Below are positions 22,725-61,601 of a stretch of DNA of 64,000 nucleotides, in pieces. The first letter of the stretch is position 1. Each line of letters starts with the position of its first letter. Both the position numbers and the translations under genes were made by a program. The stretch is taken from NCBI GenBank assembly GCA_027491435.1, contig JAOZFG010000017.1, forward strand, positions 32,001 through 96,000, written 5' to 3'. The notes under the pieces were generated by a model. That model saw nothing but the letters and a program-made list of their open reading frames with translations, was not told the origin of the DNA and searched no databases. This DNA comes from Thermoproteota archaeon (GTDB taxonomy: Archaea > Korarchaeota > Korarchaeia > Korarchaeales > Korarchaeaceae).

Positions 22725-23780
22725 ATGAGGGGGGTCTTAGTAGGTAAGTACGTGTACGTGGAGGAGAAGGTGGATAAGCTCTATAAGCAGGGGTTCGGAG
22801 AGCTATCTGGAGGTAAATTAGAGCTCCACGTAGCTGAAGCTACTTACTTAGCTCATACAGGCAGGTTGAAGGTGTATGAAGGCGACAGGGAGTTGGGTGT
22901 ATCGGACCTCCTGTTGATGCTTGAGGGAGACCAGTTCGTCAAGTACGTGGCTTATTCAGATCTCCGTAGGAAGGGAAGGGTTGTCGTTTACGAGAGGGCC
23001 ACTGAGTTCCTCAGGTTGTACCCAAAGGGGAGGAGGGTTGGAGATGCACCCGCCAAGGAGCTAGTCTTTCCTCTATCAGAGGACAGCCTAGTTAAGCATA
23101 AGCTCATACTTGACGTCGTGGAGAAGGTGGCTAGGTTGAGGAAGAGGCTTGTGCTGGCTGTGGTTGATGATGAGATGAACGTCACCTACTACACGGCTGA
23201 GAACTTCATGCCGGAGAAGAGGGAGCCTAGCTGGAGAGTCCCGGAAGGCGAGTTTCGAGGTTACCTTGTGGGAGATAGAGTCTTAGTGGTGGATGGCGGG
23301 TCTCTATACAAAGAGGGCTTCTGGGGCCATCCCCTGGGAGTTGAAAAGCCAAGGCCCGGGGAGTTGTATGATGCTCCTTTGCAGCTCACCCTGATAGAGG
23401 CTATTTACCTCATCAGGAAGGGGGCTTTGACTGTTTACTCCGGAAAAAAGGTTATGACCGCTGAGGAACTCGGTAAACTGCATGAGAAGATAAGGGAGAG
23501 GGGCAAGGTTAAGGAGAGGGTCTTCGCCTACTGGAGGGACTTGGGTTACGTACCAAAGGCAGGATCTAAGTTCGGGGCGGACTTCTTAGTTTACGAGAAG
23601 GGACCCGGGCTAGAACACGCCCCTTACCTGTGCATCTCTGGGGGTGTAGAAGAGGAAGTCAGGCCAGTGGACCTAATAAGGGCGGGAAGGCTAGCCACGT
23701 CCGTCAGGAAGGACTTGGTAGTGTCTTTGATTTCAGGTAACAGGGTCATCAGTTACAGGATTAAGTGGTTCAAACCCTGA
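22725..23780 (+). CDS. endA: tRNA-intron endonuclease, two fused units
   Basis: Duplicated units; catalytic unit has G.KFGADFLVY..GP..EHA and VRK. Confidence 0.93.
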   Translation: MRGVLVGKYVYVEEKVDKLYKQGFGELSGGKLELHVAEATYLAHTGRLKVYEGDRELGVSDLLLMLEGDQFVKYVAYSDLRRKGRVVVYERATEFLRLYPKGRRVGDAPAKELVFPLSEDSLVKHKLILDVVEKVARLRKRLVLAVVDDEMNVTYYTAENFMPEKREPSWRVPEGEFRGYLVGDRVLVVDGGSLYKEGFWGHPLGVEKPRPGELYDAPLQLTLIEAIYLIRKGALTVYSGKKVMTAEELGKLHEKIRERGKVKERVFAYWRDLGYVPKAGSKFGADFLVYEKGPGLEHAPYLCISGGVEEEVRPVDLIRAGRLATSVRKDLVVSLISGNRVISYRIKWFKP

Positions 23781-29294: not shown

Positions 29295-29384
29295 GCGGGG
29301 GTGGCCGAGATAGGCCTAAGGCGCCAGCCTTAGGAGCTGGTGGGCGTAAGGCCCGCGAGGGTTCAAATCCCTCCCCCCGCACCA
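29295..29384 (+). tRNA. tRNA-Leu(TAG), CCA encoded
   Basis: CCAGC-CT-TAG-GA-GCTGG arm, long variable arm, ends ACCA. Confidence 0.97.
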
Positions 29385-29430
29385 AAAACTGGTTGTCTAA
29401 TTTTCTCTGGATGTTTTAAGAAAATCTGGA

Positions 29431-29507
29431 TGGTGCGGCCGCCGGGATTTGAACCCGGGTCGCCGGCTTGGGGGGCCGGCATCCTGTCCAGGCTAGACCA
29501 CGGCCGC
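29431..29507 (-). tRNA. tRNA-Gly(CCC), CCA encoded, atypical C33
   Basis: GCGGCCG acceptor; CCGGC-CC-CCC-AA-GCCGG arm. Confidence 0.93.
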
Positions 29508-29512
29508 TAAGG

Positions 29513-29590
29513 TGGCGGGCCCGGGGGGACTCGAACCCCCGACCTGCGGCTTAGGAGGCCGCCGCTCTATCCTTGCTGAGCTACGGGCCC
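29513..29590 (-). tRNA. tRNA-Arg(CCT), CCA encoded
   Basis: GCGGC-CT-CCT-AA-GCCGC arm. Confidence 0.97.
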
Positions 29591-29805
29591 AGTAAGATAG
29601 GTAGACCAGGGATTTTAAAAGTTTAGGGTCTGCATATCAGTAACACATATAAAGTAAATAGGAGTTATACGGGTAAATTATTCACTTGACATTTCTATAG
29701 TTCTAATTAACACGAGTTAAGGCTTTATTTGGTTTTATTCCTTTGGTCAGAATGTAAGAAGGGGTCCAGAACGCTTATATCCTTCGTTGGGGTAATATAC
29801 ATGCG

Positions 29806-29877
29806 GCCGGGTTGGCCGAGTGGTTTAGGCAGCGGGCTGCAGACCCGTGGACGGGGGTTCGAATCCCCCACCCGGCT
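29806..29877 (+). tRNA. tRNA-Cys(GCA)
   Basis: GCGGG-CT-GCA-GA-CCCGT arm, U73 discriminator. Confidence 0.96.
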
Positions 29878-31086
29878 CTACTTTAGCCTAAACCTCCCCT
29901 TTATAACCCCTGCCCTTCTTCTCTCATCTTCTGTGGCGTAAAAAGCCCTCTCTAACAGGAGCTCTTCGATGGGATCGGGTTCGACGCCCCTTCTAGGGCA
30001 CATCCTCCTATAAGTCCTTATGACTGAGTCTATCTCCAGCTCGTACATGCCGACCCCTAGGGTCTTAGCGTATATGGTAAAGGGAGGTACGTCCTCAAAG
30101 GCAGTTCCGTGTAGGTGGGCTGCGATCCCCAAGGATACTCCGGCATAAGTCTTGGAGCCTATCGATAGCTTAGAGTGATCGCCTATGAAGGCCCCTACTT
30201 TGTTAAGGCCTGTGTCCGTCCCTCTGACCTTTACGTTGCCGTACGTGTTTTTCAAGTTGGAGGTTATCATGCCGGCCCCTATGTTGACCCACCTCCCAAC
30301 GTAGCTGTGACCTAAGAAGCCGAAGTGATACTTGTTTGAGTACTCCATTATTATGGACGTGGATATCTCGCCGCCCGCTCTAACAGCCCTTCCTATATAT
30401 GATCCTCCTATCCTAGCTCCAGACACTATTAAAGCTCCTTCCTCTATGTAAAGAGGACCTTTCAGGTAAGAGAAGGGCTCTATGGTTACCTTAGGACCGA
30501 TGTAGACAGGACCTTCCCTAGCATCCACTACGGAAGGCCCGATCACCTGAATGTCCTCTGATATACAAGCGTTGCCCCTGTCCCCAACTATTTGGAGGCC
30601 AACGTCCTTCCAATCGCACTTAGGTATGTCCCGCCTAAGCTCCTTTATTAGGGATAGGGGGGAGAGATCCCACAAGTTTTCCACTAAGGGCAATCCCTCT
30701 ACCCTCTCGACCTGTAACTTAGAAGCCCATTGCCCGCTCATCACAGCTTCAAGCTCTTTAGGTGAGACTAAAGCGGCGATAAGGGTTTTTCCCTGGACCA
30801 GGGCCTTGCCTAAGGGGAGGCTTTTTATACGCTTGTACAAGTTGGGTTCGGGTATCACCCTGGCGTTTATTAGCAGCAGGGGTTCATCATCTGTGGGGCG
30901 TCTGTCCTCGCTCACCCTCTCCTTGACCTCCTCTCTAACCAACCAGAAAGTCTTTTCGCCCAGTGCCTCCTCATGTTTCGAGAAAATCCTCTTGGAGCCG
31001 TAAACGAGTAATTGAACTGGCAATAACGTTGTTAGAGGTCTCAACCTCAGGGAAGCTTCGTCCTCGAAGAGAGTAGGTTGGACCAT
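29878..31086 (-). CDS. GlmU-like sugar nucleotidyltransferase/hexapeptide acyltransferase
   Basis: LFED...L.PLT N-terminus; left-handed beta-helix; NKYH.GFLGHSYVG.WVNIGAG. Confidence 0.85.
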   Translation of the reverse strand: MVQPTLFEDEASLRLRPLTTLLPVQLLVYGSKRIFSKHEEALGEKTFWLVREEVKERVSEDRRPTDDEPLLLINARVIPEPNLYKRIKSLPLGKALVQGKTLIAALVSPKELEAVMSGQWASKLQVERVEGLPLVENLWDLSPLSLIKELRRDIPKCDWKDVGLQIVGDRGNACISEDIQVIGPSVVDAREGPVYIGPKVTIEPFSYLKGPLYIEEGALIVSGARIGGSYIGRAVRAGGEISTSIIMEYSNKYHFGFLGHSYVGRWVNIGAGMITSNLKNTYGNVKVRGTDTGLNKVGAFIGDHSKLSIGSKTYAGVSLGIAAHLHGTAFEDVPPFTIYAKTLGVGMYELEIDSVIRTYRRMCPRRGVEPDPIEELLLERAFYATEDERRRAGVIKGRFRLK

Positions 31087-31158
31087 CTCTCCTCCTTGAC
31101 CCATAACGTCGACACTTTATAAGCCGGCCTAGCCCACTATTTCGAAAGGGGTGAAAAA

Positions 31159-32400
31159 TTGTCAACTACGTACGAGCTCTATGAGTTCAGGAAGTTAATT
31201 AAGGAGCTTAAAAATAAGAGGGGTAGGGGTACTGAATTAATATCGTTGTACATACCACCCGGAAGAAATGTTTATGATGTTATCAAGTACCTGAGGAACG
31301 AGTACGACCAAGCGAGCAACATAAAAGATAAGCTCACCAGGAAGAATGTACAGAGCGCCATAGAAAGCATAATACAAAGGTTGAAACTCTACAAGAAGAT
31401 CCCAGAGAATGGACTAGTGATATTCTGTGGTGCCATACCTAGGGGAAAGGATAGGGGGACTGAGAAGCTGGAGATATACGTAATAGAACCCCCTGAGCCG
31501 GTAAGGTCCTTCACTTACCTGTGCAGTCATGAGTTTCACTTGGAGCCCCTAGAGGAGATGGCTAAGGAAAAGAAAGCTTATGGGCTGATAGTCATGGACA
31601 GAGGAGGGGCTGTGCTAGCCATACTCAGAGGAGCTAACTACAGGATTGTGGACGAGGTAACTTCTGACATCCCACCAAAGCACAGCGCTGGAGGGCAATC
31701 TCAGAGGAGGTTCGAGAGGATAAGGGAGGAGAGGGTTCATGACTTCTTTAAGAGAGTTGGCATGAGGGCCAATCAAGCCTTCCTACCCTTGGGAGATGAC
31801 TTAGAAGGCATCATAATAGGCGGGCCAGGGGACGCCAGGGAAAAGTTCGAGGAGGGTAACTTCTTGGATTACAGGCTTCAAAAGAAGATAATAGCCAACT
31901 TACCGCTATCATACACTGAGGAGCAAGGGGTTAGAGAGCTCATCATGAAAGCTGAGGACGTTCTCTCAGAGTCAGCCCTTTATAAGGAGAAGAGGGCTGT
32001 CGACGAGATATTCACTTTAATAGCTAAAGGGTCTAACAGAGTCGTGTATGGGCTTAGAGAGGTGGAAGAGGCACTTCTAGCTGGGGCTGTCGAGAAATTA
32101 CTCTTATTGGAGGATTTACAGGTAAAGAGAGTCACTATAAGGTGTACTCAGTGCAAGTACGAGGAGAGCAAGTTCGTGAGGCCAGAGAAGGGGCTGAAGT
32201 TGGAGTCCTGGGAGTGTCCTAGGTGTGGTTCAACTACTGCCGAGGTGGAGGAGCAGGATATAATAGAATATTTTGGCGAGTTAGGGAAGCAGACAGGCGC
32301 TGAGGTCATTATAATATCTGCGAATACCGAGTGGGGCAATCAGCTGAAGGCCATAGGAGGTATAGCCGCCGTGCTGAGGTACGAACTGCACGGCTACTGA
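31159..32400 (+). CDS. prf1: peptide chain release factor aRF1
   Basis: GTELISLYIP, NIKD, Y.C, GGQS; zinc-finger minidomain. Confidence 0.98.
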   Translation: MSTTYELYEFRKLIKELKNKRGRGTELISLYIPPGRNVYDVIKYLRNEYDQASNIKDKLTRKNVQSAIESIIQRLKLYKKIPENGLVIFCGAIPRGKDRGTEKLEIYVIEPPEPVRSFTYLCSHEFHLEPLEEMAKEKKAYGLIVMDRGGAVLAILRGANYRIVDEVTSDIPPKHSAGGQSQRRFERIREERVHDFFKRVGMRANQAFLPLGDDLEGIIIGGPGDAREKFEEGNFLDYRLQKKIIANLPLSYTEEQGVRELIMKAEDVLSESALYKEKRAVDEIFTLIAKGSNRVVYGLREVEEALLAGAVEKLLLLEDLQVKRVTIRCTQCKYEESKFVRPEKGLKLESWECPRCGSTTAEVEEQDIIEYFGELGKQTGAEVIIISANTEWGNQLKAIGGIAAVLRYELHGY

Positions 32401-32438
32401 GAGGAAACTTTTATTATGGCATGGCCCAACTATAAACT

Positions 32439-32512
32439 AGGCCGGTGGCGCAGGCTGGTAGCGCGCCGCCTTCGCAAGGCGGAGGTCGGGGGTTCAAGTC
32501 CCCCCCGGTCCA
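32439..32512 (+). tRNA. tRNA-Ala(CGC) with A1:C72 mismatch
   Basis: CCGCC-TT-CGC-AA-GGCGG arm; G3:U70 identity pair. Confidence 0.93.
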
Positions 32513-32515
32513 CTT

Positions 32516-32590
32516 GGGCCCGTGGCTCAGACTGGTAAGAGCGCCCGGCTGATAACCGGGAGGTCGGGGGTTCAAGTCCCCCCGGGCCCA
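32516..32590 (+). tRNA. tRNA-Ile(GAT)
   Basis: CCCGG-CT-GAT-AA-CCGGG arm. Confidence 0.97.
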
Positions 32591-32595
32591 TTAAG

Positions 32596-40150: not shown

Positions 40151-40226
40151 TGGTAGCCCCGCCCGGATTCGAACCGGGGTCTCCGGGTCCAAAGCCCGGC
40201 GTGCTTGGCCGCTACACCACGGGGCT
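40151..40226 (-). tRNA. tRNA-Gln(TTG), CCA encoded
   Basis: A1-U72 pair; CCGGG-CT-TTG-GA-CCCGG arm. Confidence 0.97.
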
Positions 40227-40234
40227 TCAAAAGT

Positions 40235-40324
40235 TGGTGCGGGGGGTGGGATTTGAACCCACGCGGGCCTGACGCCCACCGGACCCTGAATCCGGCGCCT
40301 TGGGCCTGGCTTGGCTACCCCCGC
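40235..40324 (-). tRNA. tRNA-Leu(CAG), CCA encoded
   Basis: CCGGA-TT-CAG-GG-TCCGG arm, long variable arm. Confidence 0.97.
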
Positions 40325-40326
40325 TT

Positions 40327-40404
40327 TGGTGCTCCGGCCGGGATTTGAACCCGGGTCTGGGGCTCGAAAGGCCCCTATGCTTGGCCGGGCTACACCACCG
40401 GAGC
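40327..40404 (-). tRNA. tRNA-Glu(TTC), CCA encoded
   Basis: GGGGC-CT-TTC-GA-GCCCC arm. Confidence 0.97.
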
Positions 40405-45972: not shown

Positions 45973-46083
45973 GGGCCCGTGGCTCAGACTGGATAGAGCG
46001 CCCGCCTTATATGGCGGCTCCCGCTACATAACCGCCAGAGGAGAAGCGGGAGGTCGGGGGTTCAAGTCCCCCCGGGCCCACCA
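45973..46083 (+). tRNA. tRNA-Ile(TAT) with a 33-nt intron (46011-46043 or 46012-46044), CCA encoded
   Basis: Exons nearly identical to tRNA-Ile(GAT); CCCGC-CT-TAT-A[intron]A-GCGGG. Confidence 0.92.
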
Positions 46084-61429: not shown

Positions 61430-61448
61430 CTTACCTCACAACCTAGAG

Positions 61449-61521
61449 TGCCGGGGGAGGGATTTGAACCCTCGACCTTCCGGTCTTCAGCCGGACGCTC
61501 TCCCACCTGAGCTACCCCGGC
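61449..61521 (-). tRNA. tRNA-Phe(GAA)
   Basis: TCCGG-CT-GAA-GA-CCGGA arm. Confidence 0.97.
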
Positions 61522-61525
61522 AACG

Positions 61526-61601
61526 TGGTGGACCGGGGGGGATTCGAACCCCCGACCTCCCGCATGCCAAGCGGGCGCGCTACCAACTGCGCCACCGGCC
61601 C
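61526..61601 (-). tRNA. tRNA-Ala(GGC), CCA encoded
   Basis: CCCGC-TT-GGC-AT-GCGGG arm, G3:U70 pair. Confidence 0.97.

Follow-up and report, generated by a model that had tools for sequence, protein, structure and literature searches.

A conserved intron block antisense to the 3' exon of korarchaeial tRNA-Ile(UAU) genes and its probable part in intron excision

An intron-bearing tRNA-Ile(UAU) gene, the intron of which contains a segment complementary to the second exon, was analyzed in a 64,000-nt stretch of a korarchaeial genome (assembly GCA_027491435.1, contig JAOZFG010000017.1, positions 32,001 to 96,000; hereafter the window). The gene occupies window positions 45973-46080 on the forward strand, with the encoded CCA extending through 46083; it lies outside any coding frame and is flanked by two minus-strand open reading frames (ORFs). 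The exons form a tRNA cloverleaf (Rfam RF00005, 57.5 bits, E 6.6e-12, full model 1-71), and the Rfam alignment shows a 34-nt insertion after the loop letters CUUAUA (CTTATA in the DNA). The anticodon is UAU (T34 A35 T36 at 46008-46010), within an isoleucine-type tRNA body. The gene is overlooked by ARAGORN at its default setting (no intron mode), and ARAGORN -i recovers it under the wrong label Leu(tag).

Exon 1 (45973-46011, forward strand, as are all parts of the gene), assigned from the RF00005 match and the sequence, includes the acceptor 5' strand, the D arm, and the anticodon-stem 5' strand C27-C31 (46001-46005), and ends with C32 U33 U34 A35 U36 A37 (46006-46011). The intron, placed between positions 37 and 38 in tRNA notation on the basis of the Rfam insertion and the alignment of 37 orthologues, has 33 nt (46012-46044); a cut one base earlier on both sides (46010/46011 and 46043/46044) gives an identical mature tRNA. 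The intron starts with TGGCGG (46012-46017), which has two alternative partners: it can form helix h' with 46032-46037, or its GGC(GG) can pair with exon-1 C28-C32 (hairpin 1). This is followed by the antisense block CTCCCGCT (46018-46025), which is the complement of exon-2 positions 38-45, and then by ACA (46026-46028), present in 35 of the 37 orthologues and here reading 'CAT' together with T46029. A variable segment (46029-46034), with substitutions and indels even within a genus, precedes GAGG (46038-46041), the proposed 3' strand of a 4-bp central helix with C31 C32 U33 U34 (46005-46008), and A-G-A (46042-46044), a proposed 3-nt bulge containing the 3' splice site, the middle base of which is G, A or T among the orthologues. 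Exon 2 (46045-46083) comprises A38, the anticodon-stem 3' strand (46046-46050), the variable loop, the T arm, the acceptor 3' strand, and CCA; the target of the block, AGCGGGAG (46045-46052), covers tRNA positions 38-45. A related metagenome DNA contig, from one DNA run, spans the gene and differs in the variable segment 46029-46034; three RNA runs gave no reads at the locus, a result with no bearing on expression. The intron letters quoted in the initial annotation are all present exactly.

The class was represented by 40 species genomes, and that of the window (G000) comprises 1.64 Mb in 43 contigs. The TiaS family PF08489 (TiaS_FLD) was matched in none of the 40 genomes, 23 of which are at least 90% complete, and in all four archaeal control genomes. 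Passages of two publications name Korarchaeum cryptofilum, Nanoarchaeum, and ARMAN as archaea that have a tRNA-Ile(UAU) and lack TiaS (PMC6000648, PMC3239211), and the gene in the window fits this published set of intron-bearing tRNA-Ile(UAU) genes in TiaS-less archaea, of which it is an ordinary member. BLAST searches of the class gave 29 full-length orthologues including this one, distributed over four genera (20 in g1, five in g2, one in g3, and three in g4), and a covariance model built from 18 orthologues, together with fetched long hits, added eight more (four in g5, two in f2, and two in f3). This makes 37 orthologues in the 40 genomes, with none among the examined hits in genomes G025, G031, and G037 (72-80% complete).

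The genes of g1 to g4 have a single intron, those of g5 have two (29/30 and 37/38), those of f2 three, and those of f3 two. In all eight outgroup genes (L063, L067, L068, and L069 in g5; L061 and L062 in f2; L048 and L050 in f3) an extra intron is located at 29/30, inside the anticodon stem, and the third intron of the f2 genes is in the D loop. The 29/30 motif takes its central helix from G24-C27, and thus cannot coexist with the D stem and the anticodon stem. In one g4 gene (L029:1501-1620, minus strand, genome G034) the D loop has approximately 15 additional bases (GGAAAGAAAGCTCCCAGAAAGAGC) that are absent in the other g4 genes and are probably a second small intron. The 37/38 intron of L067 (genome G039, g5) is 44 nt long rather than 25-27 nt, with an internal duplication (AAGCCAAGAAGCCUAAGAA), and L063 and L069 (g5) contain a tandem double CUCCG.

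The block is the most conserved part of the intron. CUCCCG(C/U) followed by ACA occurs in 29/29 orthologues of g1 to g4, with CTCCCG invariant, and in an alignment of 18 sequences 21 of the 33 intron positions do not vary at all: 1-4 (UGGC), 7-12 (CUCCCG), 15-17 (ACA), 24-27 (CCAG), 29-31 (GGA), and 33. Between genera (59 pairs), intron positions 1-17 are 90% identical, versus 25-27% for the 40-nt flanks, which is the random level. The T stem has paired substitutions in each genus; together with the saturated flanks, these indicate that there has been ample time for change, and on this comparison of sequences the antisense block is under selection.

The initial annotation also described the block as perfectly complementary to exon 2, and CTCCCGCT is indeed the exact reverse complement of AGCGGGAG. 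When the intron was shuffled 5000 times with its dinucleotides preserved, 0.6% of the shuffles gave a Watson-Crick run of 8 nt against the opening 12 nt of exon 2. The run against exon 2 is 8 nt in all 20 g1 genes, 7 nt in all six genes of g2 and g3 (5/5 and the single g3 gene), and 7-8 nt in g4, where it reaches 9-10 nt counting G:U pairs and where intron positions 5-6 have changed from GG to AC or GC, pairing with U47 and G46. The g5 genes have C in place of G at exon position 41 (pair 29:41 is G:C rather than C:G), and their block, which reads CUCCGG, complements positions 40-45 in 4/4 genes. Among the 19 distinct g1-g4 rows, seven of the eight pairs between block and exon 2 hold in every one. 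The block also resembles exon positions 24-32, with G26 and C32 changed to U, which gives perfect pairing with 38-45.

As a control, we used 31 orthologues of the intron-bearing elongator tRNA-Met(CAU) (G000:C5:94611-94720, L081/L086, with 30 further orthologues, L087-L113, L049, L060, and L070). The tRNA-Met intron is far more variable than that of tRNA-Ile(UAU), and in each of the 31 it matches exon 2 in runs of 3-5 nt, which argues that the tRNA-Ile(UAU) block is not a general by-product of GC-rich sequence. A candidate exon-2 antisense in the tRNA-Met intron of G000, CUGGAU, was rejected for lack of conservation, as these short runs show, and has p 0.85. The tRNA-Met intron does have a Watson-Crick antisense of 6-9 nt to exon 1 in 24/31 orthologues (g1 19/19, g2 4/4, g3 1/1), directed at the D-stem 3' strand, position 26, and the anticodon-stem 5' strand. 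This pairing shows compensatory changes (exon GAGCACCG/intron CGGUGCUC versus GCGCCGG/CCGGCGC, and GCGCGG/CCGCGC in g3); in g4, f2, and g5, GCUC:GAGC alone remains. An initiator tRNA-Met was not seen in G000 with either ARAGORN in intron mode (46 genes) or the Rfam tRNA model (43 hits).

The initial annotation raised the possibility of an alternative fold of the precursor, and this alternative is the predicted minimum free energy (MFE) structure (-56.8 kcal/mol, z -3.29; 0/200 shuffles fold as well). In the MFE structure the acceptor, D, and T arms are intact, and the anticodon stem is replaced by two hairpins: hairpin 1 pairs exon C28-C32 with intron G2-G6 around a 6-nt loop of U33-A37 plus the first intron base, and hairpin 2 pairs the block with exon positions 38-45. 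The block helix, rather than the anticodon stem, is present in the MFE fold of 26/29 g1-g4 orthologues (L029 was folded without its 5' end), and the two-hairpin fold is also the predicted minimum for 3/4 g5 orthologues. The pairing probability of the block helix at 37°C is 0.55-0.99 in 18 of the 19 distinct sequences (0.99 in this gene), and at 80°C it is 0.57-0.86 in g1 and g4, and lower in g2 and g3. The core of hairpin 1, G30C31C32:G2G3C4, pairs in 23/23 distinct rows, and is kept in g5, where three of the four introns lack a GCCA partner.

In the g1-g4 genes the register of the splicing motif is shifted. In the canonical 37/38 register (C32-A35 versus intron 28-31), the g1-g4 precursors have two wobble pairs flanked by mismatches, so that no such motif can be drawn, whereas this register is present in 8/8 outgroup genes of g5, f2, and f3 (C32-A35 with UAAG, UAGG, or UGAG), with a 3' bulge made of two intron bases and A38. 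One base 5' of this, C31-U34 pairs with intron 27-30 (G-R-G-G), with 4/4 pairs in 19/19 distinct g1-g4 rows and with U:A (13 rows) or U:G (six rows) as the sole variation. The bulges in this shifted register are A35 U36 A37 and A-N-A, in which the middle base is free to vary, and helix h' (UGGC:GCCA) is paired in 20/20 rows with letters. The archaeal cut, according to the rule from solved structures, falls after the second bulge base; in the shifted register this would give the same mature tRNA because there is an A on both sides. The shift removes C31 from the anticodon stem and leaves A38 facing G30, and no helix h is available through the anticodon stem. Since A38 faces G30, the exon cannot supply an outer helix, and either the intron block or a 5-nt bulge would be needed. 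In g1 and g4 the last pair of the block is at A38, the first base past the shifted 3' bulge; in g5, which has the canonical register, the block ends at C40, beside C31:G39. The boundary of the block thus moves together with the register, and this is our main reason to favor a role for the block in the endonuclease substrate.

The enzyme is encoded in the same window, at approximately 22938-23756 on the forward strand (G000:C10:54938-55756), as a single ORF of 367 aa with two tRNA_int_endo (PF01974) domains (45.5 and 72.8 bits). The K. cryptofilum endonuclease has been placed within the broad-specificity (alpha-beta)2 lineage, and this type of enzyme is reported there alongside non-canonical introns, according to passages of Fujishima et al. 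(PMC3239211). By analogy with that enzyme, a relaxed substrate is plausible for the endonuclease of G000.

Taken together, the conserved block, by pairing with exon 2 in place of the anticodon stem, probably shapes the excision of the intron. As to how, we tentatively prefer a reading in which the outer helix of the splicing motif is provided by the block helix, which also releases C31. The intron would carry a selected stand-in for the anticodon-stem 5' strand; in the unspliced RNA the block would pair with the anticodon-stem 3' strand and the first bases of the variable loop, and the anticodon stem would not form. With exon 2 held by the block, C31 would be free to join C32 U33 U34 in a 4-bp helix with the intron G-R-G-G, and the flanking triplets A35 U36 A37 and the intron-end A-N-A would become two bulges. 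The helix between block and exon 2 would start right past the 3' bulge, as an outer helix, such that the motif would be of the relaxed hBH type, one base off the textbook register, and built mostly from the intron. We infer that the endonuclease would use this form and cut within its bulges. Cutting would turn the block helix from an intramolecular helix into an intermolecular 8-bp duplex, which may dissociate at the temperatures at which these archaea grow in hot springs and vents, allowing the real anticodon stem to close for ligation.

Several observations weigh against this proposal. The change in g5 is a single evolutionary event, and its 6-nt run taken alone is not significant (p about 0.09-0.15); MAFFT, moreover, places the g5 block two columns off. 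Column counts give 0 pairs between block and exon 2 with a double-sided change, because exon 2, which is nearly invariant, hardly varies. The exon-2 antisense block is absent from f2 and f3; a look-alike in f3 (GGCUCCCCGG) pairs inside the intron, with a compensatory change of G:C to A:U between G001 and G002. In g2 and g3 the base opposite A38 is unpaired, which results in a 4-nt 3' bulge. The block helix and h' are mutually exclusive, since intron positions 6 and 7 are joined without a linker, and the block helix of g4 takes in positions 5-6 as well; a full hBHBh' is thus impossible, and the proposed form is a pseudoknot. Hairpin 1 occupies C31 and C32 and so competes with the proposed central helix. 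Finally, RNAfold also misses the anticodon stem in the tRNA-Met and tRNA-Tyr precursors of this genome, and for this reason the predicted dominance of the block helix is weak evidence. Two variants were discarded on structural grounds: the full hBHBh' motif with the block as helix h, on the steric grounds just given, and the two-hairpin fold as the direct substrate of the endonuclease, in which a coaxial helix of 13 bp would separate the splice sites, one at each end.

The proposed form can be compared with splicing motifs in other archaea. The ARMAN-2 pre-tRNA-Ile(UAU), as presented in PMC3239211, has a 25-nt intron and a strict hBHBh' motif. The korarchaeial gene shares with this canonical 37/38 intron the isoacceptor, the TiaS-less archaeal host, the position of the intron beside the anticodon, the two 3-nt bulges and 4-bp helix that can be drawn, and the presence of an endonuclease gene. 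Unlike the canonical intron, the 4-bp helix is available solely one base 5', using C31 of the anticodon stem; in that register no outer helix can come from the exon's own strand; and a conserved exon-2 antisense of 7-10 nt out-competes the anticodon stem in the predicted folds. It is similar to the relaxed hBH, HBh', and BHL motifs associated with the broad-specificity endonucleases of Crenarchaeota, Nanoarchaeota, and ARMAN in that one outer helix is missing or replaced, and the catalytic unit of the korarchaeal enzyme is reported, also in PMC3239211, to root within the (alpha-beta)2 family. It differs from these in that the outer helix would be formed across the motif by an internal segment of the intron and the 3' exon, as a pseudoknot; in the full-text literature searched, we found no description of a pseudoknotted outer helix of this composition. 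More broadly, the exon-2 antisense block, the one-base-shifted central helix, and the predicted replacement of the anticodon stem appear to be undescribed in the main texts of that literature.

The closest competitor to an outer helix is a switch that delays splicing, which is possible, if somewhat doubtful. Based on the predicted folds, the two intron-exon hairpins would form a stable, splicing-incompetent resting state hiding both splice sites, giving time for modification of the anticodon loop (U34/U36 or A37) or other maturation before refolding to a bulge-helix-bulge; in this way an archaeon would replace the nuclear/cytoplasmic separation by which yeast puts Pus1 action and splicing of its pre-tRNA-Ile(UAU) in order. 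The two-hairpin fold is the predicted minimum in the 26/29 and 3/4 orthologues noted above, and the G30C31C32:G2G3C4 pairs, present in all 23 distinct rows, persist in g5 even in the three of four introns with no h' partner. Any tRNA-Ile(UAU) has to be kept from reading AUG, and TiaS is not matched in the class. In yeast, Pus1 acts solely on the intron-bearing form, pseudouridylation of the pre-tRNA-Ile(UAU) has to come before its splicing, and the compartments enforce this order, as stated in passages of PMC4090602 and PMC11408192. An archaeon would have to set the order by other means. The korarchaeial case involves the same isoacceptor, a kept intron, and an anticodon engaged with the intron before splicing, as in the Pus1-dependent eukaryotic system, although the domain and enzyme set are different and the conserved pairing is with the 3' strand of the stem, not with the anticodon. 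The conserved exon-1 antisense of the tRNA-Met intron in the same clade, with its compensatory changes, also speaks for a delay.

Against a delaying switch, no modification enzyme was identified, and no guide RNA came to light: the scan, which covered box C/D but not H/ACA guides, gave 249 9-mer complements to the stretch between tRNA position 27 and intron position 19, and in no case did a C box and a D box both lie close by; 11-mer complements numbered 12, versus approximately 17 expected by chance. If the helix were purely inhibitory, one would not expect its end to coincide with the shifted bulge, or its position to shift together with the central helix; refolding must open 13 GC-rich pairs; and f2 and f3 do without the block.

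It is unlikely that the block is a leftover from a state with several introns, when it would have let the 37/38 motif form while C27-G30 were tied up by the motif of a 29/30 intron, and that it has little present function in g1 to g4. In g5, f2, and f3 the 29/30 motif is built on G24-C27, with C28, G29, and G30 as bulge bases, and the block is present in g5; conformation-dependent, ordered splicing of multi-intron archaeal pre-tRNAs was reportedly described by Tocchini-Valentini and colleagues in 2009. In both settings alternative exon-intron pairings decide which motif forms, and the sister lineages here have two or three introns; unlike multi-intron pre-tRNAs, the g1-g4 genes have one intron and yet keep and extend the alternative pairing. 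A functionless block would decay like the neighboring positions and flanks; instead, it is invariant in four genera and lengthened in g4. The f2 genes, moreover, have the 29/30 intron without the block.

Even less probable is an action in trans of the excised, possibly circular, intron, in which the block would pair with tRNA-Ile or another RNA. The block of 7-8 nt is displayed in a loop and conserved together with ACA, and there are precedents (PMC11408192, PMC13079951) in the box C/D guide intron of Haloferax tRNA-Trp and in free yeast tRNA introns that pair with mRNAs. In the euryarchaeal pre-tRNA-Trp (Clouet d'Orval 2001 and Singh 2004, as summarised in PMC11408192), the guide intron has antisense elements to each of the two exons near the anticodon stem, with C34 and U39 as the targets, and resembles the present case in that the antisense pairing and the splicing motif are mutually exclusive. 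Unlike it, the korarchaeial intron is only 33 nt long, has no C/C'/D/D' boxes, and allows no K-turn to be drawn; neither box C (RUGAUGA), box D (CUGA), nor an H box occurs in the 33 nt. The exact complement of the block plus ACA (11-mer) is found nowhere else in the genome besides the gene's own reverse strand, an 8-bp intermolecular duplex would be unstable at a high growth temperature, and the block follows the change at exon position 41, which points to the tRNA as its partner.

The initial annotation had also proposed that the intron may be a relic of a CAU anticodon arm, as in tRNA-Ile2/Met(CAU), with a 7-nt insertion. Removal of CCCGCTA does leave GGCGG-CT-CAT-AA-CCGCC, a perfect 5-bp stem with the loop CTCATAA, although the deletion was chosen post hoc. 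CAUAA occurs in 3/37 orthologues (this genome and two g4 genomes, which also have ACATAA), ACAU at the homologous spot in 4/37, and the whole stem-loop-stem in this genome alone (1/37). The bases after ACA are TAA, AGA, GGG, G, GAA, GGA, GAG, A, AA, or T, with indels even inside g1; since ACA is fixed in the relatives, 'CAT' requires just one more base. The exons of tRNA-Ile(UAU) are 70/75 identical to those of tRNA-Ile(GAU) in the same genome and look like a copy of that gene, not a descendant of a CAU gene, in line with a passage of PMC6000648 in which the Korarchaeum (K. cryptofilum) UAU gene is viewed as a modified copy of the GAU gene. Of the two features that the initial annotation proposed to compare among relatives, CATAA is not kept, and the complementarity to exon 2 is (29/29 in g1 to g4, and with changed letters 4/4 in g5). 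A fossil arm is scarcely credible, given that the base after ACA is A, G, or T in g1 and A in g2, g3, and g5, making an ancestral T unlikely, that the g4 stem is merely GGC/GCC, that conservation within the intron is highest in the 'inserted' 7 nt, that the hypothetical 17-nt arm has no copy in the genome, and that, with no TiaS match in any of the 40 genomes and neutral flanks saturated between genera, a CAU ancestor would have to be older than the class. We also rejected a second, alternatively spliced tRNA with the block as a stem, since its anticodon would not be constant (CAU, CAA, CAG) and an A would stand at position 33.

Elsewhere in the window there are 11 tRNA genes without introns, clustered at 29295-32591, 40151-40404, and 61448-61601; among them tRNA-Ile(GAU) (32515-32591) directly follows tRNA-Ala(CGC). 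On other contigs of G000, C35:19518-19653 resembles a multi-intron tRNA-Trp(CCA), and C28:4868-4973 a tRNA-Ser(CGA) with a D-region intron; both are mislabeled by ARAGORN.

Archaeal tRNA introns are usually treated as sequence-free passengers outside the bases of the bulge-helix-bulge. Here, about two thirds of a 33-nt intron are frozen across four genera, and what is frozen targets the exon rather than the motif. Should the block helix belong to the substrate, it would widen the known rules by which archaeal endonucleases recognize splice sites; these rules also serve as tools in producing circular RNA. Should it act as a timer, it would provide a first archaeal parallel to the way in which eukaryotes handle tRNA-Ile(UAU) through its intron, and would bear on how TiaS-less archaea separate AUA from AUG. 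A wider generalization, speculative and rather doubtful at present, is that korarchaeial pre-tRNAs build or gate their splicing motifs with intron-encoded stand-ins for anticodon-stem strands: in tRNA-Ile(UAU) a block directed to the 3' exon, as the outer helix of a pseudoknotted, one-base-shifted motif, and in tRNA-Met a block directed to the 5' exon. If true, archaeal introns would have a hitherto undescribed means of directing their own excision, or of timing it relative to anticodon modification in a cell without compartments.

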